Shown here piece after piece: positions 5,454 through 46,982 of a stretch of 48,531 nucleotides of DNA. A program made the position numbers and the translations under genes. Numbering within the stretch: the first letter of the stretch is position 1; each line of letters starts with the position of its first letter. Under the pieces are notes generated by a model. It was not told the DNA's origin. It saw only the letters and a program-made list of their open reading frames with translations, and ran no database searches. The DNA comes from a bacterium (GTDB lineage Bacteria > Patescibacteriota > Minisyncoccia > Minisyncoccales > CG1-02-41-26). The stretch is from assembly GCA_043802745.1 (NCBI GenBank), contig JAZDKU010000006.1, positions 1 to 48,531 of the forward strand, read 5' to 3'.

Positions 5454-5615
5454 CTATTTTTTATTAAAAATAACAGCAAAAATATTTACCAATGGAACAA
5501 AAAATAAAAATATAAAAAGTGGCATATTATCAGTACTATAAACCGCTAAAAAATATACCACAAAACCAATTTGCGCCACACTAAGAAAAATCGCTAAATA
5601 ATTTAAAATTTTCAT
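5454..5615 (-). CDS. small hydrophobic protein (53 aa)
   Basis: Hand-translated: MKILNYLAIFLSVAQIGFVVYFLAVYSTDNMPLFIFLFFVPLVNIFAVIFNKK, ending in TAG at 5454-5456. The ATG sits 2 nt after the conserved hairpin, the same geometry as at 28434. Confidence 0.35.
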   Translation of the reverse strand: MKILNYLAIFLSVAQIGFVVYFLAVYSTDNMPLFIFLFFVPLVNIFAVIFNKK

Positions 5616-5617
5616 GT

Positions 5618-5660
5618 CTTAGAAATCGTTAATAAGCGAAGCGAATTTACGATTTTTTAG
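5618..5660 (-). repeat. conserved hairpin element, copy 1
   Basis: Plus-strand arms are cttagaaatcgt / acgattttttag and the loop is taataagcgaagcgaattt. It overlaps the last codons of the YgjP-like CDS. A second hairpin (5661-5713) containing CCGCCAGCTGGCGG follows it in plus-strand coordinates. Confidence 0.7.
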
Positions 5661-6123
5661 ATCCTGTTAAACGCTCTTCCGCCAGCTGGCGGAAAAAAGC
5701 GTTTAATCGGGATACTCCTTTCTTTAATTCTTTTCGTATTTCTAAATAATCAGGTATCTCCTGCCCCACTAAATTCCAAAATTTTTGGGAGTGGTTAAAC
5801 TCTTTTAAGTGGCATAACTCATGCACAATAATATAGTCAGCCAGCCTTTCAGATATCAAAACAATTTTATAATTAAAATTCAAATTTCCTTTTTTAGAAC
5901 AACTCCCCCACCGAGTTTTCTGATTTTTAATACTTATCTTATTATACTTTAACCCGTAAACTTTATTAAAATGCTCAATCCTATTTTGCGCCAAAGCCAA
6001 GGCCTGCTCCCTGTATTTTAGATAATCTTTTTTGCTCCCTTTTAAAGATACCCGTCGCCAAACCCGCCTTACCCTAAACACATAACTAACCCTCCCTTTT
6101 TGCAACTCAATCTCTTTTTTCAT
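5647..6123 (-). CDS. YgjP-like (DUF45 / SprT-like) zinc metallopeptidase-fold protein
   Basis: HELCHLKEFNHSQKFW (HExxH...H) preceded by TRWGSCS. At 158 aa it is shorter than typical family members. Its C-terminal ~22 codons are encoded by the repeat element. Confidence 0.65.
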   Translation of the reverse strand: MKKEIELQKGRVSYVFRVRRVWRRVSLKGSKKDYLKYREQALALAQNRIEHFNKVYGLKYNKISIKNQKTRWGSCSKKGNLNFNYKIVLISERLADYIIVHELCHLKEFNHSQKFWNLVGQEIPDYLEIRKELKKGVSRLNAFFRQLAEERLTGSKKS

Positions 6124-6873: not shown

Positions 6874-7599
6874 TTACCTAATGCCTGTGTCACAAGACAG
6901 GTTAGCCTCAATTACTTTGCCTGGCTCTATGGTTATGTTTTTTGTTTCGCATCTTGGCATAACAGCTCCCCCAACCCCTTGGAGCGCATACTCCCCAGGC
7001 GGGAGCATTATTTTATACTTTCCCTGCTTATCGCTTTCTATAGTGGCAAAAGGCGAACTGTTTGGGCTTCCCACCACAATCACTTGAATTTTAGTGGCAT
7101 AAGGCTTGTCAGCGCATTGGGGGTCGGGCGGATTTTTCATAACTGGGCAAGTGGGCCCAAGTGTAACCACACCCTCAACCCCAGAATCAAAAGGCAAAAT
7201 ACCAGTGCAACGCCAATTTATCTCAGCGGTTTTTGTTTCTTCACTCACCACGCAAGCTGGGTTGCACCCCTCTTTAGTTGCGTTTAGATTAGCATCAAAC
7301 CACCAGGTTTTAGTGCCAGCGTTATAAATGCCAACCGCTAACGCTTCACCACCCTTAATACAGTCCTTTTCAGCAATTAAGCGAGCTTCGGCCTCAGATA
7401 GCAAGCTGTTTATTGCCGGGCAAGGAGCAAACTCACAGTTAGGGCCAGTTCGGCCAACCGCTGAGCCATCTGGACAAAGCATAGCTTCCTCTGTGCAAGC
7501 AACTTGCCCTGGCTCTGGCTGATTAGAAAACTTCAAGCCAAGCAAAACCGCCACAACTAAAATTAGAACAACCGCGCCTATAATAATTATTTTTTTCAT
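6874..7599 (-). CDS. membrane-anchored extracytoplasmic protein with a Cys-rich N-terminal part and a beta-sandwich-like C-terminus
   Basis: The start is set at the MKKIIIIGAVVL signal anchor (7599), which removes the overlap with the upstream gene. The C-terminal DKQGKYKIMLPPGEYAL resembles carboxypeptidase-regulatory-like folds. Confidence 0.5.
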   Translation of the reverse strand: MKKIIIIGAVVLILVVAVLLGLKFSNQPEPGQVACTEEAMLCPDGSAVGRTGPNCEFAPCPAINSLLSEAEARLIAEKDCIKGGEALAVGIYNAGTKTWWFDANLNATKEGCNPACVVSEETKTAEINWRCTGILPFDSGVEGVVTLGPTCPVMKNPPDPQCADKPYATKIQVIVVGSPNSSPFATIESDKQGKYKIMLPPGEYALQGVGGAVMPRCETKNITIEPGKVIEANLSCDTGIR

Positions 7600-7615
7600 A
7601 TTTTTTAAACAGATA

Positions 7616-8602
7616 TTAGTGCTTAACAACTTTCAAAGAAATTGCGCTCTCCCCTGCTGATAATTTTAATTCGCCCCCGATAGGAAAAGTAATTCTAGGG
7701 CAAGTGTGACCAAAATCAACATTAGCCACAATGGGCATGTTGCCTAACTCCTTTTTTGTCTTTATTATTTGCCTTAGTAAATCTTCAGTCATTTTACTGA
7801 CTCTTTGAAATCTGCCCATCACAATGCCTCTCACCCCCTCAAACCCAGGCTGGTGAATAAGCGACTGTAAATCTCTATCAAAAGTATGTGGCAAAGATTC
7901 GTCATCATCTTCCAAGAATAAAATTGATTCTTGTAGATTTGGAAAATATTCCGTACCCTGCAAGAGATTAAGCGTGCAAAGATTGGCTCCCAAAATTGTG
8001 CCAAAGGCCTCCCCCTTATTAATCAACCAAAAACCCTCGCCATCAATCAATGTCCTATCCTCTTGATTCATATACCAAGCATCGTCACTCCATTGTTTGG
8101 CTGGTAAAATATCAAAAGAATCTTCAGCCATTAAACATTTTTTAAAATAATCTAAAGTATAATCAAAATATAGCTTCTCGCCAAAACTTGAATAATGCGG
8201 TCCAGAATAATTAACCAAACCAGTCTTAGTAAAAATAGCGTTATTTAAAGCAGTAATATCCGAATAGCCGCAAAATATTTTTGGATTATTTTTTATTAAC
8301 TCCCAATCCAAATACCTTAATAATTGGTTGCAATTAAATCCTCCGATAACTGTAATAATGGCTTTAATGCTTTTGTCAGCAAAAGCTTCATGCAAATCTT
8401 CAACACGCGATTCAATGCTAGAGGACCTAAAGCTATCTGCTTCTTCAGCATGCTTGCTAAAGCTAAGCTCCAAGCCCAAGTCAGCAAATCTTTGATTGGC
8501 TATTTCTCTAGATTCTTTTGAAATAATGGCCAATGTTCTTGAGGGTGCAACCACTCGCACGCCATCCCCCTTATTTAATTTTTCCGCAAAAATCTTTTTC
8601 AT
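7616..8602 (-). CDS. LD-carboxypeptidase (peptidase S66, LdcA/MccF-like)
   Basis: 328 aa. GDGVRVVAPS, ITVIGGFN and GYSDITAL (nucleophile Ser), plus a C-terminal FGH. This is the S66 family layout. Confidence 0.8.
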   Translation of the reverse strand: MKKIFAEKLNKGDGVRVVAPSRTLAIISKESREIANQRFADLGLELSFSKHAEEADSFRSSSIESRVEDLHEAFADKSIKAIITVIGGFNCNQLLRYLDWELIKNNPKIFCGYSDITALNNAIFTKTGLVNYSGPHYSSFGEKLYFDYTLDYFKKCLMAEDSFDILPAKQWSDDAWYMNQEDRTLIDGEGFWLINKGEAFGTILGANLCTLNLLQGTEYFPNLQESILFLEDDDESLPHTFDRDLQSLIHQPGFEGVRGIVMGRFQRVSKMTEDLLRQIIKTKKELGNMPIVANVDFGHTCPRITFPIGGELKLSAGESAISLKVVKH

Positions 8603-8889: not shown

Positions 8890-9405
8890 TTATTTTAAAA
8901 ACTTCAAAGGCCAAAAAATAGCTACCCCTCCAGCTGAAGCCAAGGTTCTAACTGAAGATATTCTCCTAACACATCTGTCTGGCTTATCTTGAGAAATTCC
9001 GCTCATAGTCAAAGTGTCGCCATTGGCCATAGGACATTCAAAAGTTTTGTACTCCTCTATTAAATACCTTCCAGCAAAAGCAAGCCCAATTAAAAAATAA
9101 ATAATAACCACCCAAATTAAAATTTTCTTAAACTGTATTTTCATAATTTTTATTCCACTCTCCGCTTCTTTTTCCATTTTATCTAAGCGAGTATAGTAGT
9201 CTGAAATTTCTTTGAGATGCGCCCAAGCAATCTTGCCAGTCTTGGCTTCATCGTCATTGGTCACATTGGTTTGTGGGTCATGAGCTCCATGCTCCAACTC
9301 CACCCCCAACCCCATCCTAAACTCCTCCAAATCGTACTTGGTAAAATCCACCCCAATCCCCTCCCCTATTAATTTTGCCTCCTCTTGCGTAAATTTTTTA
9401 TTCAT
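8890..9405 (-). CDS. DUF5661-like domain fused to a TM helix and a C-terminal extension (paralogue A)
   Basis: The first ~83 aa are about 85% identical to ORF 12170..12424 (FTQEEAK.IG..IGVDF..YDLEEFR.GLGVELEHG...TNVTNDDEA.TGKIAWAHLKEI.DYYTRLDKMEKEAE). A TM helix follows (ILIWVVIIYFLIGLAF). The family name is from memory. Confidence 0.6.
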   Translation of the reverse strand: MNKKFTQEEAKLIGEGIGVDFTKYDLEEFRMGLGVELEHGAHDPQTNVTNDDEAKTGKIAWAHLKEISDYYTRLDKMEKEAESGIKIMKIQFKKILIWVVIIYFLIGLAFAGRYLIEEYKTFECPMANGDTLTMSGISQDKPDRCVRRISSVRTLASAGGVAIFWPLKFLK

Positions 9406-9424
9406 AGTTTTTTCTTTTTCTTAT

Positions 9425-12169: not shown

Positions 12170-12424
12170 CTACTCCCCTTCCGCTTCTTTTTCCATTTTA
12201 TCTAAGCGAGTGTAGTAATCTGGAATCTCTTTGAGATGGGCCCAGGCAATTTTGCCAGTCATTGCTTCATCGTCATTGGTAACATTGGTTTGTGTGTCGC
12301 AAAGCCCATGCTCCAACTCCACCCCCAAGCCCACCCTAAACTCCTCCAAATCATACACGCCAAAATCCACCCCTATCATATCCCCTATTACTTTCGCCTC
12401 CTCTTGTGTAAATTGTTTTTTCAT
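12170..12424 (-). CDS. DUF5661-like protein (paralogue B, domain only)
   Basis: 84 aa, about 85% identical to the N-terminal domain of 8890..9405. Confidence 0.6.
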   Translation of the reverse strand: MKKQFTQEEAKVIGDMIGVDFGVYDLEEFRVGLGVELEHGLCDTQTNVTNDDEAMTGKIAWAHLKEIPDYYTRLDKMEKEAEGE

Positions 12425-12440
12425 AAATAAAATGTTTTAG

Positions 12441-27570: not shown

Positions 27571-28434
27571 CTATGGTTGGAAGAGTTCTTCGGGGATAAA
27601 CTTAACTTCGCTAACTTCGGGAAATTGCTTGGCTGTGGCTTCGATTTGATTCCACAGTATACTCACACGACAAGACCCCCCGCCTGTTTTATTATTAGGA
27701 TCGTTAAAATCTAAAGTTAAAACTTTGTTATTTAAAGATGCTCCTTGTAAAACAAAACCAGGTAAAGGATACTCGGTGGTAATACCCTGGGCCTTTTCTT
27801 GACTAGTTAGCTCGCCTTTTAATAACAACTTAATAGCGTCTTGGATAGGCGTTTGTGTGAGGGGAATTTGCCTTTCCACCCCCACCAATCCCTTTTCTGA
27901 ACAAGCAATATTGTCTAAATTAGGATTATAATAATAAAGCTTTATGTCTCTCTGCTCTAAGCTTGCTGAAGGATTTTGCAAAACAACAGGTATGCGGATT
28001 TCTTTTTCGTTTTCGGGCAAACCCGAGGGGTTATCGTTCATTAAGACCAAAATAGCTGGCTGGGTGGTGGTGGCAATTTTAAAATTTAAAATTGATTTAA
28101 AGGGCACAAAATTTTCCACCATCCAATCCCCCTGCGCCTGAGCAAAAGTTGAAGTAATCGTATTGCCAGATAAGTCTAGTAAAGCCACGGGAAATGTAGC
28201 TTCAAAATACCAACCGCCTCTCGCTTGGCCTGTTATAGTAAACGGGCTTTGGATAACTTGATTTGGGTTTGGGCTGTCCACTTTAATTAAATCGCTATAT
28301 TGATTGGCTAAAGTTGTGGTAGTATTTGGATTTGGCACAACAACTTCTTCTTTATCTTGCTTTTGCGAAAACAAAAACCATGCCAAAGCCCCAACCACAG
28401 CAACTAACAAAATTACAATAAGTATTTTTTTCAT
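27571..28434 (-). CDS. secreted Gmad2 Ig-like plus GerMN domain protein
   Basis: Signal anchor. PFTITGQARGGWYFEATFPVALLD (Gmad2-like). The C-terminal KLYYYN...CSEKGLVGVERQIP...AIKLLLKG...LTLDF is GerMN-like. Confidence 0.6.
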   Translation of the reverse strand: MKKILIVILLVAVVGALAWFLFSQKQDKEEVVVPNPNTTTTLANQYSDLIKVDSPNPNQVIQSPFTITGQARGGWYFEATFPVALLDLSGNTITSTFAQAQGDWMVENFVPFKSILNFKIATTTQPAILVLMNDNPSGLPENEKEIRIPVVLQNPSASLEQRDIKLYYYNPNLDNIACSEKGLVGVERQIPLTQTPIQDAIKLLLKGELTSQEKAQGITTEYPLPGFVLQGASLNNKVLTLDFNDPNNKTGGGSCRVSILWNQIEATAKQFPEVSEVKFIPEELFQP

Positions 28435-28436
28435 AT

Positions 28437-28479
28437 GTTAGAAATCGTTAATGAGTGAAACGAATTTACGAGTTCTTAC
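28437..28479 (-). repeat. conserved hairpin element, copy 2
   Basis: Arms are gttagaaatcgt / acgagttcttac and the loop is taatgagtgaaacgaattt. On the transcribed strand it ends 2 nt before the ATG at 28434. A second hairpin is at 28480-28520. Confidence 0.7.
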
Positions 28480-28530
28480 ACCCCGTTAAACGCGACCTCA
28501 AGGAGCTGTTTAACTGGGGTATTCTTAATT

Positions 28531-29853
28531 CTACTTTTTTAATTGAGATTTGTAAACGCTAGAGCGCCCGCCATAGCCAGCCAATAAAACGCTATACTCT
28601 GGCACTTTGAAAACTTGCAAGCGATTGTCTAAAAAATCAGAAAAAACCATTTGCTGGCCATTGGGTGAAACAGCCAAAGCTGTTGGCTGGTTGCCTCCAA
28701 CAATGGCGTCCAGCATATTGCCAGTTTGCGTGTCAAACAATAAAACACTCCCCCATTCCGGACCCGGAATATAATAATTTTCCGCAGTGGCATTGACTCC
28801 GCGACACGAAACAAACAAAACTTTTTTATCTGGACTTAGGGCTATGGTATTTGGGTTTGTGTCTGTGGTGGCGAATTTCTTAACTTGGTCCGTGGCTAAA
28901 TCAACTTGCATAATAGACATTTTTCCCATATCAGAAACATAGAGCACTCCCCTATTTTCATCTCCCACAATATGGCGCATAGCTCCATTGCTTTTGTAAA
29001 TAACTTTTCCTTGGCCTGTTTTTAAATCTACTTTTTGGATTTCGCCCTTATCAAAACCAGCCACATATAAAAAGTTTCCGTCTTTGGTGGCATACATTCC
29101 TCGCGGAGTTTTTACGGTTGGTATTTGGCGGATTGTTTTACCTGTTTCAATATCAATTTCTGTGACAGTGTTGCCCACCCAATTAGAAGCAAACAAACTT
29201 TGCCCATCGCTTGAAAAATCAAGTTCTTTTGTCCAGTTGCCTTTGGTGTCAAAAACCTGCAAAACTTTTTTTGTGGCTGTGTCTATTTCAAAAACTTGGG
29301 CTGTTTCCATTTGGCTCACATAGGCTTTTGAGCCGTCTTTAGCAAAAATCATTTCCACTCCCCCGCCGTTTGCCAAGTTAATATTAGCAATATTTTTGCC
29401 TGTGCCAGCGTCAAACACAGCCACACCTCGCGATTTATTTAAAAGCAAAGTAGCCCAAATTTCTTGGCCGTTTGGGCTAAAAGAGGCGCCCTTGGGAGCT
29501 GGCACCGAATTTATATTAAATAAGTGATGCACTAGTTGCCCTGGTAAATCAGCTAAGTTACTTTTAATATTATTAACTAAGGGCGCTGAAGTTGTTGCTT
29601 GCACTGAGCCTGCCGAAGTGCTTGTCGAATCCGTCGAAGTGGCTTGCCCTGCTTGCCCGCCGAAGTCTTGACGAAGGCGAGAGCTTGTCGAAGTGGCTTG
29701 CCCTGAGCGAGTGGAGCGAGCCGAAGGGTTTGTTATGGCAAAATTCGCGCTTGATAGCTCCTCAAGCCTTTCTTTATTTTTTGAAAAATATAAAAAAAAT
29801 CCACTTGCCAACAAACAAGCTACTAGAATTATAATAAATAACCTTTTTATCAT
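28531..29853 (-). CDS. YncE/YVTN-type beta-propeller repeat protein with a low-complexity GC-rich N-terminal linker
   Basis: Repeated G..P.g.a.spdG..lyV-type blades (FSPNGQEIWAT, AKDGSKAYVS, SSDGQSLFAS, TKDGNFLYVA, SPDKKVLFVS, SPNGQQMVFS). The N-terminal anchor is followed by an STRSGQATSTSS...GGQAGQATST linker. Confidence 0.7.
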   Translation of the reverse strand: MIKRLFIIILVACLLASGFFLYFSKNKERLEELSSANFAITNPSARSTRSGQATSTSSRLRQDFGGQAGQATSTDSTSTSAGSVQATTSAPLVNNIKSNLADLPGQLVHHLFNINSVPAPKGASFSPNGQEIWATLLLNKSRGVAVFDAGTGKNIANINLANGGGVEMIFAKDGSKAYVSQMETAQVFEIDTATKKVLQVFDTKGNWTKELDFSSDGQSLFASNWVGNTVTEIDIETGKTIRQIPTVKTPRGMYATKDGNFLYVAGFDKGEIQKVDLKTGQGKVIYKSNGAMRHIVGDENRGVLYVSDMGKMSIMQVDLATDQVKKFATTDTNPNTIALSPDKKVLFVSCRGVNATAENYYIPGPEWGSVLLFDTQTGNMLDAIVGGNQPTALAVSPNGQQMVFSDFLDNRLQVFKVPEYSVLLAGYGGRSSVYKSQLKK

Positions 29854-33541: not shown

Positions 33542-33556
33542 GTGTGGGCTTTCTTG

Positions 33557-33630
33557 TGGGCGTGCGTGGATTCGAACCACGGACCTTCGCTTTATCAGAG
33601 CGACGCTCCAACCAACTGAGCTACACGCCC
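33557..33630 (-). tRNA. tRNA-Ile (anticodon GAU)
   Basis: GGGCGTGTAGCTCAGTTGGTTGGAGCGTCGCTCTGATAAAGCGAAGGTCCGTGGTTCGAATCCACGCACGCCCA has a perfect 7-bp acceptor stem and a CTGATAA anticodon loop. No CCA is encoded. Confidence 0.9.
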
Positions 33631-33673
33631 ATTAGAATAACTTAATGAGTGAAACGAATTTAGTTATTCTTAT
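33631..33673 (-). repeat. conserved hairpin element, copy 3 (abuts G1 of tRNA-Ile)
   Basis: Arms are attagaataact / agttattcttat (11 of 12 positions paired) and the loop is taatgagtgaaacgaattt, identical to copy 2. A GC-rich hairpin lies at 33674-33705 (flanking, upstream in the transcript). Confidence 0.75.
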
Positions 33674-33714
33674 GTCCCGCCGAAGCCTTGGCGTAGGCGG
33701 ACTACTTTGTTCTC

Positions 33715-33743
33715 ATAATACCAAACAATTAAAAATAACTCAA
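33715..33743 (-). promoter_or_regulatory. sigma70-like promoter TTGAGT-17-(TGg)TATTAT upstream of the tRNA-Ile/tRNA-Ala unit
   Basis: On the minus strand: TTGAGT (33743-33738), a 17-nt spacer ending in TGG, and TATTAT (33720-33715). Confidence 0.4.
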
Positions 33744-33797: not shown

Positions 33798-33928
33798 CCT
33801 AGGCCGATATTTTGGGCTGTTCGGCCAATACCCGTAAAGTTAAAAATAGAATTCTCAATTTTCAACCTTCATCGACAAAATTAGAATAGAAATGATCCAT
33901 CGACAGCTTCCGCTACCGATGCCTTGTT

Positions 33929-34709
33929 CATGTGTTTTCTCTATATCGCTATAGGGCATGGACTATATCATCACCCTGTTTTTCAGAATACTTATTTTTC
34001 TTGGATGCCACGAACCAATTTTATCAATAAATAATTTTTGGGACTTTGCCAAAATATAAATTCTCCAATAATTTGGATCAATCTTATAACTTGGATTATG
34101 AATTTTGCCTGTTTGAATTCCTAAATCATCTAAAATAAATTTTATCTTCTCAATTTTCGCTTTATCTTTTTGCGTTAATTGAATGTAAAACCTATCTTTT
34201 TTGTTATGAGGAATTCCTCCTTCAGCGTCAAAAAATCCTCTAATGTAAGCTGTTTTTTCTTCTTGCGTTTTTAAATTTTCAGGATTAAATTGAAAATCTA
34301 AAAATTTTGCTAAGGTTTCCAAAACATAAACATCTCTTGTTTTTCCCTCTTTATAAATCCAAGAGGAAAAACCGATTTGTTTTAAAAATTCTCTCAAAAT
34401 CTTTAGCCAATCATCGCCTTTTTGAGAAATTCTAAATCTTCCATTAGAACTAAAAGTTCCATCGTGTATAGCACCGAGAAAGTAAGCCATTATAACTTTC
34501 CGAAAATCAGGGGCTCGGCGTGTAGTCTCTGAGGGGTTAATCCCGATTTTATCGGGACAACTTCCCTGCTGATGATCTGCACCAGAAGCATTTTTACTCA
34601 TAATATAATTATATCACAAGTAGCTCTGGATACTCAGGGATTCCAGCATATAGCCAAGTTTTTCTTAAAAGGTTTCCCTTTTAGGTCGCAACAAACTCTT
34701 TTCGAGTTC
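33929..34709 (-). mobile_element. 16S insertion 2 (intron-like, about 781 nt) in the 1492-region GAAGTCGT/AACAAGG
   Basis: The conserved AAGTCGTAACAAGG is split. The junction is ambiguous by 4 nt because GAAC occurs at both ends. It carries a LAGLIDADG ORF. Confidence 0.75.
33963..34601 (-). CDS. LAGLIDADG homing endonuclease (two-motif type)
   Basis: YFLGAIHDGTF and YIRGFFDAEGGI are two LAGLIDADG-like motifs about 90 aa apart. The true start may be the internal MAYFLG (34490). Confidence 0.7.
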   Translation of the reverse strand: MSKNASGADHQQGSCPDKIGINPSETTRRAPDFRKVIMAYFLGAIHDGTFSSNGRFRISQKGDDWLKILREFLKQIGFSSWIYKEGKTRDVYVLETLAKFLDFQFNPENLKTQEEKTAYIRGFFDAEGGIPHNKKDRFYIQLTQKDKAKIEKIKFILDDLGIQTGKIHNPSYKIDPNYWRIYILAKSQKLFIDKIGSWHPRKISILKNRVMI

Positions 34710-34798: not shown

Positions 34799-35719
34799 TG
34801 GGATCAAAAACATTTTATTGTCCCACACCACTGGGCAAACGGTTTTCCCGTACCCTAGCGGTTTCCAACCGATGTTTCTTGCCTAAAACTCTCATTGCCT
34901 CTTGTAGCTTCTTGATTTCATTAACGCCTTTTATGGTAAGATGTTGTCTCTTTTTTCTTTTTTCCACAATTTTCTTAAAAAGACGGAACCGTTTTGCCTG
35001 TTTGGCCTGTAATGGATTCTTTTCAAAAAACGGAATAAGAATTTCTGAAATTTCATCAAACCTGCTTACTTTGAATTTAACATGAGGATACCAACCGTAT
35101 CGCTCATATTTGCATTCATAAATTTTACCGCAACCAATAGTTTCTTTTATCCTGTGTAGAATTTCCTTGTCGTCATCTCTGAGTTCAATGGAAAATTCCG
35201 GACGAACCAAAACTTTGTTTTTCATGCAGTCGTCTTTATAAATACTAACCCAAAAACTTCCTTCGCCGTCAACGAAACCAGCCACATATTGAGGATGGAG
35301 TTTTTTGATCGGTTGAATTCGTTCCTTCCTCGCCCTAGGGCGAGTACTATGAACTCTGCTGACTTCTTGCAATTGCATAAAATTTAAATTGCTTTAAACT
35401 CTTTTACTGGTGTGGGCTAGCCACAGTTTAATTTTAAACTTTCCAGTAACAAATGCAAGATCTCGCTGGGTCACTAAACAAACTTTCTTCTCTATCTCGA
35501 TGCTTCTACATTTAACAAGATATAATTTAAGGATAGCTTCTCCATGTACTCGCAGGATCGCCATCTTGTTAAACCACAACAAACATTCAAGCTAAAGAAT
35601 GCTACTTTCGCCCTTCATCTTGCCCCTCACGAGACAAAACTGCGATTTCGCTTTTGGAAATCCTTAATTTCCCAAGTTGGATTTTAACCAACTAATTTGA
35701 GTAGCTGCCAGCCACCCGA
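34799..35719 (-). mobile_element. 16S insertion 1 (intron-like, about 921 nt) in the 1391-region TTGTAC/A(C>T)ACCGCCCGTC
   Basis: CCTTGTAC at 35727-35720 is followed by non-rRNA sequence, and ATACCGCCCGTCAC resumes at 34798. It carries a LAGLIDADG ORF. Confidence 0.75.
34815..35378 (-). CDS. LAGLIDADG homing endonuclease (single clear motif)
   Basis: YVAGFVDGEGSFWVSI motif. 187 aa, basic termini. Confidence 0.75.
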   Translation of the reverse strand: MQLQEVSRVHSTRPRARKERIQPIKKLHPQYVAGFVDGEGSFWVSIYKDDCMKNKVLVRPEFSIELRDDDKEILHRIKETIGCGKIYECKYERYGWYPHVKFKVSRFDEISEILIPFFEKNPLQAKQAKRFRLFKKIVEKRKKRQHLTIKGVNEIKKLQEAMRVLGKKHRLETARVRENRLPSGVGQ

Positions 35720-36804
35720 GTACAAGGTCCAGTGACATATTCATCGCCGCATAGCTGATCGGCGATTACTAGCGATTCCAACTTCATGAGGTCGAGTTGC
35801 AGACCTCAATCCGAACTGAGACCGGTTTTGATGGGATTGGCTTCACCTTGCGGTTTCGCAGCCCATTGTACCGGCCATTGTATCACGTGTGCGGCCCAAG
35901 GCATAAAGGCCATGCTGATTTGGCGTCATCCTCATCTTCCTCCACATTAACTGCGGCAGTCCCCCATGACAAATAAAACATAGGGTAAGGGTTGCGCAGG
36001 TTTCCCAATTTAATGGAGCACCTCACGGCACCTGCTGACGACAACCAGGCAGCACCTGTACTAACGGTCTTGCGAGGGCTCGAGTTTCTCCGAGCTTTCC
36101 ATTAGCATGTCAAGCCTTGGTAAGGTTTTCGCTTATCGTCGAATTAAGCCACGTGATCCACCGCTTGTGTAGACCCCCGTCTATTCCTTTGAGTTTCACT
36201 GTTGCCAGTGTACTTCCCAGGCGGGATACTTAACGCGTTAGCTTCACCAGTGGAAGGGTCGATACTTCCACCAATCAGTATCCATCGTTTACAGCGTGGA
36301 GTACAAGGGTATCTAATCCTTTTCCATGCCCACGCTTTCGTCAATCAGCGACAGAGTTGCCCTAGTAAGCTGCCTTCGCTTTTGGTGTTCCATACGATAT
36401 CAACGGATTTCACCCCTACACCGTATGTTCCGCTTACTTCTAGCACCCTCAAGTTTGGAAGTATCTCCAATGAACTTAAAGTTGAGCTCTAAGATTTTAT
36501 CAAAGACTTTCCGAACCGCCTTAAGACTCTTTACGCCCAGTGAATCCGGATAACGCTTGAAGGTCACGTATTACCGCTGCTGCTGGCACGTGATTAGCCC
36601 CTTCTTATTCATAGGGTACTGTCAATAACTTCATCCCCTATAAAAGCGGTTTACAACCCTAAGGTCTTCTTCCCGCACGCGACGTCGCTCCATCAGGCTT
36701 TCGCCCATTGTGGAAGATTCTCGACTGCAGCCTCCCGTAGGAGTATGGCCCGTGTCTCAGTGCCATCGTTGGGGAACACGCTCTCACGCCCCCTACCCGT
36801 CATC

Positions 36805-36847
<43 letters not shown>

Positions 36848-37078
36848 GACCCATCCCAAAACGGATTGCTCCTTTACCCAAAACATTACTGCCTTGGGAC
36901 TATTGGGAATTAGTTCACCTTTCGATGAATTATGCCCAATTTTGGGGTTGGTTATCTGCGTATTACTAACTCGTTCGCCACTGCCACCTTGCGGTGGCCG
37001 TTTGACTTGCATGCCTTATCCACGTCGCCAGCGTTCATCCTGAGCTAGGATCAAACTCTCAAAAAAAATTGAAATAGA

Positions 37079-42124: not shown

Positions 42125-42170
42125 TTCCGACCCCACTCCTCGGCCCGCAAGCCGAGGGGTGGGGTCGGAA
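42125..42170 (-). repeat. GC-rich 20-bp-stem hairpin, copy 1
   Basis: ttccgaccccactcctcggc-ccgcaa-gccgaggggtggggtcggaa fills the rpsB-tsf spacer. It lies 3 nt after the rpsB stop and 12 nt before the tsf ATG. Confidence 0.8.
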
Positions 42171-46938: not shown

Positions 46939-46982
46939 TCCGACCCCGCCCCTCTGCTTGCGGGCAGAGGAGTGGGGTCGGA
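46939..46982 (-). repeat. GC-rich 19-bp-stem hairpin, copy 2 (inverted relative to copy 1)
   Basis: tccgaccccgcccctctgc-ttgcgg-gcagaggagtggggtcgga. It lies 6 nt after the ferredoxin stop and 8 nt before the rplY ATG. Confidence 0.8.

Follow-up and report, generated by a model that had tools for sequence, protein, structure and literature searches.

The question raised by this locus is why a 43-nt hairpin should lie directly against the first base of a tRNA gene and, at two other places in the same 48,531-nt stretch of bacterial DNA (the whole of which was analysed and is referred to here as the window), just 2 nt before a start codon. The hairpin, which we call hairpin B, is a minus-strand element with three copies in the window, and its coordinates, arms and loops as given in the original prediction proved exact on re-checking, as did the gaps of 0 nt to G1 of tRNA-Ile and 2 nt to the two ATG codons, all on the minus strand. 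The GC-containing hairpin noticed directly 5′ of every copy was likewise present in 3/3 cases on the minus strand, and B was found to be one half of a two-hairpin repeat of ~85–95 nt, A-B, in which A is the GC-rich hairpin directly 5′ of B. The features of the three copies are as follows.

5618..5660, minus strand: hairpin B of copy 1 (60.3 bits), ending 2 nt before the ATG of a 53-aa ORF (5454–5615)
5661..5713, minus strand: hairpin A of copy 1 (ATCCCGATTAAACGC...GCGTTTAACAGGAT), translated within the tail of the YgjP-like ORF 5647–6123
28437..28479, minus strand: hairpin B of copy 2 (64.4 bits), ending 2 nt before the ATG of a Gmad2/Germane-domain gene (27571–28434)
28480..28520, minus strand: hairpin A of copy 2 (ACCCCAGTTAAAC...GTTTAACGGGGT)
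28528..28556, minus strand: promoter-like site of copy 2 (TTTACA-17-TAGAAT), inside the end of a beta-propeller gene and 7 nt before hairpin A
33556..33630, minus strand: tRNA-Ile(GAT), immediately 3′ of copy 3
33631..33673, minus strand: hairpin B of copy 3 (63.3 bits), its last base adjoining G1 of tRNA-Ile
33674..33702, minus strand: hairpin A of copy 3 (GTCCGCCTACGCCAAGGCTTCGGCGGGAC)
33715..33743, minus strand: σ70-like promoter of copy 3 (TTGAGT-17-(TG)TATTAT), ending 12 nt upstream of hairpin A

Since tRNA-Ile occupies positions 33556–33630 on the minus strand, copy 3 adjoins its G1 with no gap. The stem of this copy consists of 12 bp with an A.A mismatch, around a core of U-AAAUUC-GUUUCAC-UCAUUA-A. 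The centre of the hairpin had been described as a near-invariant 19-nt loop; it is indeed near-identical between the copies, but it is itself folded, with an AAU/AUU helix, a 2x2 UC/UC internal loop, two GY/RC pairs and a UUC triloop, and the C-G to U-A difference in this loop between window copies is compensatory. Four compensated changes had also been proposed for the inner stem of copy 3, three of which are Watson-Crick swaps, whereas the fourth replaces a pyrimidine-pyrimidine mismatch of copies 1 and 2 by a pair. The loop pattern has three exact matches in the window versus 0.25 expected by chance; a fourth site matches it with 3 mismatches but is without arms. From 57 family members a covariance model (R1) was derived, which recovered exactly these three copies in the window, each on the minus strand, with scores of 60–64 bits and E-values of about 1e-14, the next match having an E-value of only 0.1. 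Almost all long ORFs of the window are also on the minus strand, which is the leading strand according to GC skew.

The hairpin had no match in Rfam at the gathering score, either in the whole window or in 20 related loci (loci outside the window are given here by L number), and a search of the copy-2 region at E≤10 returned nothing except a spurious rRNA match; ARAGORN and Rfam gave no indication that the element is tRNA-like. The core sequence was absent from the literature searched, using both strands and the DNA and RNA alphabets, and general literature searches on CPR hairpins and anti-Shine-Dalgarno sequences turned up nothing relevant. In a genome scan that used TTAGAA plus the loop as its anchor, true copies were confined to Patescibacteria MAGs, with six copies in E14 bin.214, four in Paceibacterota STD1_120, and one each in KatS3mg092, a Roizmanbacteria MAG and a MAG labelled Gammaproteobacteria; E. 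coli had no match to the element. A metagenome scan with the loop alone detected at least 120 loci, with chance matches roughly estimated at ~7, and as the loop was fixed in this search, its invariance across those matches is by construction. In the unselected metagenome matches listed, the flanking 12-mers formed a mean of 7.0/12 Watson-Crick pairs compared to 4.06 for permuted partners, and at least 8 pairs in 45/100 cases versus 3.9 expected. By these searches, hairpin B belongs to a large and undescribed family.

It had been suggested that a larger alignment would tell whether compensatory substitutions are genuine, and covariation in the family is strong, with 37 distinct inner stems among the metagenome matches listed. 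A selected alignment displayed double-sided changes at 12/17 pairs, a signal that was gone when the partners were slid, and at least one compensatory change was found between orthologous copies (L005 versus L019). Variants of B include AACTCGCTTCGCTCGA and AAATTCATTTCATTCATTA, and some members carry apical insertions, with a 15-nt stem insertion in some and an insertion of ~170 nt in one. Because such variants exist, the truly conserved part is U-AAAUUC (5′ side) together with UCAUUA-A (3′ side), in a helix with variable lower and upper stems. A viral origin was rejected, as there were only 2 matches in IMG/VR, and matches on plasmids of Acinetobacter, Legionella and Klebsiella have only an 18-nt core in common with the element. 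One of the plasmid loci, Acinetobacter baumannii plasmid pTS9900 (L145, 1380–1550), contains, in the region from the replication iterons to mobA, clustered motifs of the TTCGCT(T)ACGCTCA type, with an exact match to the 18-nt core and a hairpin with two such motifs in its loop.

The second component, hairpin A, was also found outside the window. The hairpin A of copy 2 recurs with compensatory variants in several MAG and metagenome loci, and in L024 a different B is preceded by a near-identical version of the copy-3 hairpin A. Promoter-like sites in which both hexamers are present were located just upstream of A in copy 2, copy 3 and L117, the latter with TTGACA-17-TATACT upstream of the cassette, and −10-like hexamers precede A in most other copies. 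In copy 2, hairpin A starts at about the +1 position predicted from the promoter. The order in copy 3 on the minus strand is 16S gene, strong hairpin with a U-rich tail, promoter, A, B and tRNA-Ile, and because the promoter is situated 12 nt upstream of A, the A-B element is predicted to form the 5′ leader of a separate tRNA-Ile/tRNA-Ala transcript. No suitably placed promoter was recognised inside B itself, where the −10 slot, 6–8 nt before the first flanking base, is occupied by the covarying inner 3′ arm, and none of the three window copies contains a terminator-like site, for which a GC-rich hairpin with a U tract within 0–2 nt was required. A σ28 reading of B (TAAA-N15-CGAT) was rejected because the CGAT is part of the covarying inner stem, and a resemblance of the loop to a T7-like phage-type promoter (11/18) was judged to be due to chance. 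The possibility of an rrn boxA was dismissed as well (GCUCAUUAAC versus GCUCUUUAAC, 9/12), as the segment is partly paired, occurs before unrelated mRNAs and is reversed after tRNAs.

Copy 1 differs in its upstream neighbour, a YgjP-like (M48-type) metallopeptidase ORF (5647–6123, minus strand), whose C-terminal tail of 23 residues (GVSRLNAFFRQLAEERLTGSKKS) is encoded by hairpin A together with the 5′ part of B. This tail is missing in all homologues examined, which end 5–9 residues after ELKK; the window ORF runs on for 23 residues across A, and its stop codon is provided by the loop of B. Judged by these homologues, the YgjP-like gene has had its end displaced by copy 1. Among the relatives compared, no clean empty site corresponding to copy 1 was found, because the downstream synteny differs.

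In the window's clade, the position of the element relative to the start of the gene or RNA behind it follows a rule. In gene-proximal copies of the window's Paceibacteria-like clade, the ATG follows B at an offset of 0 nt (13 cases), 2 nt (12 cases) or 4 nt (3 cases), with no equivalent peak in the reverse orientation in the same clade, and the first base after B was a purine in 34/34 copies. A gap of 0 nt to G1 was seen in three independent cases, namely the tRNA-Ile of the window, a tRNA-Asp (L083) and a tmRNA (L003), the tmRNA being confirmed by Rfam at 7390–7775 and directly preceded by the element at 7776–7818. Within the window's clade, the proposed check on strand and distance therefore came out in favour of a single orientation with ATG offsets of 0, 2 or 4 nt, whereas outside this clade antisense copies were present at tRNA 3′ ends. 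In lineages with Shine-Dalgarno pairing, a GGAGG sequence is located 0–4 nt after B. The hairpin base is not always the RNA start, since in L077, which represents another lineage, the start codon is within the 3′ arm of B, and in L109 the 3′ arm overlaps positions 1–4 of a tRNA. The genes downstream of the element are functionally unrelated, and include L33-like, L10-like and SerRS-like genes as well as tRNA and tmRNA.

The original prediction had raised the possibility of an organism without a Shine-Dalgarno system, and this is in agreement with the 16S rRNA, which is missing the anti-Shine-Dalgarno core. The 3′ end of the 16S gene (33880–33905, minus strand) reads GGATCATTTCTATTCTAA (in shorter or other renderings GGAUCAUUUCUA and GGATCATTTCTA), and since CCUCC is not part of this sequence, the core has apparently been deleted. 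Upstream of the window genes the sequence is A/T-rich and without GGAGG. The UUUCUAA of the 3′ arm was considered as a mimic of the 16S 3′ tail, but the similarity is probably a coincidence, as the same arm is found in lineages with a canonical GGAGG. The 16S gene itself (37066 to about 33888, minus strand) is interrupted by two insertions with LAGLIDADG ORFs (34815–35378 and 33963–34601). The Rfam 16S alignment spans only 35676–37066; an Rfam match to group-II-D1D4-1 was present at 35322–35403 inside the first insertion, and the 16S leader is able to pair with the trailer.

Tracing of Gmad2 orthologues in related loci provided a direct comparison of sites with and without the element. The spacing between the beta-propeller and Gmad2 genes is 9 nt in L150 and L153 (TAGAATTAACTTATG) versus 96 nt in the window, where the difference corresponds exactly to A plus B. 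The promoter-like TTTACA-17-TAGAAT/TAAAAT is kept in the window, L150 and L153 (2466–2503 in both L150 and L153), where it overlaps the final codons of the beta-propeller gene in all three, and its −10 hexamer ends 6 nt before the ATG in L150 and L153 versus 7 nt before hairpin A in the window. The 6-nt spacing to the ATG suggests that, in the window's clade, the Gmad2/Germane gene is transcribed without a leader. Where the Gmad2 gene is instead paired with Band_7, the site is empty in L149 and L158 and filled in L152, and the element-free orthologues have the gene 2–9 nt from its upstream neighbour. The filled site of L152 (2238–2500) contains A plus a B with an apical insert of ~170 nt between AAATTCATT and TTCATTA, consisting of further hairpins with no obvious ORF, and this B still ends directly at the ATG. 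The closest relative, L157 (protein 90% identical), has only the 5′ arm of B next to an intact gene and hence appears to carry a truncated B, although this sits 33 nt from the contig end and could be an assembly artefact. Alignment of these loci shows A-B to be an insertion that is missing at orthologous sites.

No clear target-site duplication was found in the filled/empty alignment or in the flanks of other copies; the alignment permits a TAA or AT repeat at one site, and the other copies were without matching flanks. There was no conserved left-flank target either, as ACCCCAG-type copies were flanked by GAAT, GAAC, GTAG, GTCT, TTTG and ACAA. The right junction of the element is far tighter than the left. 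Simple neutral insertion in a short spacer leaves this partly unexplained, as it does the purine rule and the conservation of the internal-loop core in different phyla.

Several further arrangements are typical of repeats. Tandem A-B-A-B-A-B arrays with a period of 84–86 nt precede one gene in L004 and L005, inverted B-A-B arrangements are located between divergent genes in L015, L001 and L007, and many short contigs among the metagenome matches listed end inside the element. In a contig of 62% GC (L035, 2700–2997), of which the Crp-like protein is closest to that of a Xanthobacteraceae MAG, two A-B units lie between the Crp-like gene and a convergent tRNA-Arg, adjoining its CCA end. The GC-rich contigs L062, L090, L132 and L070 likewise have A-B arrays antisense against the CCA end of tRNA-Arg or tRNA-Glu, with A hairpins that end in GCGCCA (tRNA sense), like the tRNA itself, and one of the antisense copies at tRNA 3′ ends involves a 3′-half tRNA fragment. 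Patescibacteria and an alphaproteobacterium-like contig have the core of the internal loop in common, and this suggests that a factor interacting with it is conserved as well. A direct repeat of ~75 nt, comprising the 5′ part of a tRNA-Trp and its upstream region, flanks an A-B element in L037 (3480–3760), and suggests duplication or rearrangement at that insertion site. No transposase or recombinase was linked to the element in the window and 155 loci, and tblastn with the TnpA proteins of IS200 and IS608 gave nothing in the 915 kb of flanks of these loci, RAYTs being divergent; no candidate parent IS element was seen in the sequence examined.

Whether the stems are maintained at the level of RNA or DNA was assessed from their mismatches. 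If selection acted on the forward-strand RNA, the stem mismatches would be expected to include far more G:U than A:C. There was no such excess, with 29 G:U(T) versus 26 A:C, and the reverse strand folds more stably than the forward strand in 23/25 B hairpins and 19/25 A hairpins. The stem complementarity is therefore maintained symmetrically, which is unlike a forward-strand RNA under selection and is expected for a DNA palindrome, for example one kept by template switching or DNA-level mobilisation, while the RNA hairpin may still matter. The centre of the reverse strand reads UGA-GCGAAGC-GAA, with tandem G.A pairs and a GAA triloop; a comparison of this (UGA/GAA) with hammerhead-like or K-turn structures was rejected, as only the tandem G.A pairs are common to them, with no three-way junction and no 3-nt bulge.

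On balance, and if only just, we consider it probable that A-B is a dispersed, insertion-polymorphic REP/BIME- or MITE-like cassette, which is co-transcribed as a 5′ leader between the promoter and the first RNA base. The locus comparisons show the element downstream of promoter-like sites, and show it to vary by apparent truncation, apical insertion and tandem or inverted duplication. In this Paceibacteria-type lineage the cassette would insert in one orientation between the −10 box and the first base of a functional RNA, this base being either the ATG of otherwise leaderless mRNAs or G1 of a tRNA or tmRNA. A-B would then be transcribed as a 5′-terminal double-hairpin leader, from which RNase P would free the tRNA and tmRNA precursors, while insertion before ATG codons would be tolerated because translation starts without Shine-Dalgarno pairing. 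Orientation and position could result from target preference, from purging of harmful insertions or from both, and the 5′ end may be incidentally stabilised. The MITE-like repeat had been listed among the alternatives in the original prediction, and fits best, with presence/absence polymorphism observed at orthologous sites; of the structured RNA or processing signal proposed there, the hairpin, the covariation and, in the window's clade, the strand-specific fixed distance were all found, but an essential signal is not supported, as there are orthologues that do without the element.

The same arrangement might also be read as RNA punctuation, with an endonuclease cutting at the 3′ base of B to leave a 5′-terminal AUG or the mature end of a tRNA or tmRNA, in which case the cassette could insert harmlessly at transcription starts, like a self-removing element. 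The ending of B at 0, 2 or 4 nt before ATG and at 0 nt before G1 of tRNA-Ile, tRNA-Asp and tmRNA would fit such cleavage, as would the constant purine after B, the leaderless promoter layout of element-free orthologues and the combination of a 16S rRNA without CCUCC with window genes without Shine-Dalgarno motifs, and the conserved internal loop between variable helices resembles a recognition motif. However, most genes in the window have no element and yet must be translated, orthologues manage without it, one close relative appears to have a broken B, and RNase P requires no such signal; the start codon in the 3′ arm of L077, the arm over tRNA positions 1–4 in L109, the antisense elements at tRNA 3′ ends in other lineages and the absence of a G:U excess in the stems also argue against cleavage, which we consider unlikely. 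If this reading were true, it would represent a new bacterial route to leaderless mRNAs. Its combination with mobility, in which a mobile 5′ leader targets the first transcribed base and is then cut off the RNA at the base of B, restoring the 5′-terminal AUG or the tRNA or tmRNA end, strikes us as distinctly unlikely; were it correct, the self-removed leader would be a bacterial analogue of mitochondrial punctuation, spreading harmlessly among leaderless transcription units in a lineage without anti-Shine-Dalgarno sequence.

A cis-regulatory RNA, in which a protein bound to the AAAUUC/UCAUUA loop gates the start codon or Shine-Dalgarno sequence, or in which the hairpins block 5′-dependent RNases, would be compatible with a location immediately before ATG, or before GGAGG in Shine-Dalgarno lineages, and with the presence of the element before highly expressed genes (L33-, L10- and SerRS-like genes, tRNA and tmRNA). 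It could also accommodate the start of the copy-2 hairpin A at about the predicted +1 and a second family of GC hairpins 8–13 nt before ATG codons (42126–42169 and 46939–46982), but the functionally unrelated downstream genes, the fact that tRNA and tmRNA are not translated, the polymorphism at orthologous sites, stem mismatches without strand asymmetry and the failure to find a candidate binding protein make it quite improbable. The strand symmetry of stem upkeep, the better folding of the reverse strand and the partial dyad symmetry of the core are in line with a signal in the DNA, such as a promoter, an operator for a dimeric protein, or a directional insulator or terminator that would stop antisense transcription through a reverse-complement GC hairpin followed by U-rich sequence. 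TAAATT is the only TAnnnT hexamer in B and has a purine 7 nt downstream, but it has no −35 or extended −10 partner, while good σ70-like promoters are found upstream of A and none within B. With no terminator-like site at the three window copies, and with arms that covary in a way not expected of conserved operator half-sites, a DNA signal of this kind is very improbable. A parS half-site (GTTTCAC) was also considered, and rejected because it is found only in a minority variant of the loop.

Returning to the cassette, the element is, as far as its sequence and distribution can tell, a dispersed palindromic repeat with an unusual and precise tie to the base at which transcription units begin. 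The general view is that small-genome Patescibacteria hold little repetitive or mobile DNA, yet a compact two-hairpin repeat of this type would be able to colonise the handful of nucleotides that separate a promoter from a leaderless gene, tRNA or tmRNA. The R1 model may serve as a sequence handle for the starts of transcription units in uncultured lineages, and the natural pairs of filled and empty sites offer a way to see how leaderless genes tolerate a structured leader of 90 nt. The AAAUUC/UCAUUA internal-loop motif is apparently common to at least one alphaproteobacterium-like contig.

The window contains two other repeats. The second hairpin repeat (42126–42169 and 46939–46982) is a 44-nt GC-rich palindrome (TCCGACCCC...GGGGTCGGA), of which the two copies are 80% identical and are located 8–13 nt upstream of an ATG, with spacers (ACGAGTAAATTTT and CTAACTTT) that resemble fragments of B; these copies may be decayed A-B cassettes or hairpins that stabilise the 5′ terminus. 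A direct repeat of 246 nt (87% identity, 9161–9406 and 12180–12425) covers the starts of two ORFs, of which 8890–9405 encodes a DUF5661 protein and the other is 12170–12424.

Comparison with known systems brought out partial similarities to several of them. The punctuation of mitochondrial transcripts by tRNAs is relevant for the cleavage reading only, and is alike in that a structured element adjoins a leaderless mRNA without Shine-Dalgarno pairing; however, the element described here is not tRNA-like, is present at few genes and is missing in orthologues. Integron attC sites have an R″ (RYYYAAC) at the 5′ side, an R′ (GTTRRRY) at the 3′ side and a variable centre, and form cassette arrays beside intI. 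They were rejected as a model because the core-like GTTAGAA is on the strand opposite to the genes, conservation is seen in the centre with variation in the arms, and the copies are 5 and 23 kb apart.

The PATEs derived from IS200/IS605 elements are similarly very small, with a hairpin near each end and strand-specific insertion, and make no target duplication, of which no clear case was seen here either. In contrast to PATEs, A and B are unrelated to each other, there is no conserved tetranucleotide at the left flank, and no Y1 transposase was found in the 915 kb of flanks. The Correia elements (CREE/NEMIS) of Neisseria and the ERIC/IRU sequences of enterobacteria, which are MITE-like repeats, are also small, palindromic, non-coding insertions which are polymorphic between strains, are often located just upstream of genes and are transcribed into a hairpin, and some Correia elements are cut by RNase III, which alters transcript stability. 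Those elements are 100–150 bp in size, with conserved terminal inverted repeats and a TA duplication, whereas the unit described here consists of the 43-nt B and an unrelated hairpin A, with no evident duplication and with terminal arms that vary around a conserved centre.

A further parallel is with the REP/BIME sequences of Proteobacteria, which are mobilised by RAYTs and are likewise short (~35–43 nt), imperfect, extragenic palindromes in multiple copies, to which the element corresponds with three copies in 48.5 kb, at least 120 metagenome loci and an intergenic location in the window. Both form mosaics with other motifs, inverted pairs and tandem arrays, both are co-transcribed with neighbouring genes, and in both the family is common within a genome while the stems differ between lineages. 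There are differences, as no RAYT gene was found in the sequence searched here and there is no GTAG at the foot, the copies of the window's clade beginning with NTAAG and those of other lineages having unrelated feet. The conserved part is the centre of the hairpin and not its foot, and rather than being located in 3′ untranslated regions, the copies of the window's lineage are positioned at 5′ ends, adjoining start codons or G1.
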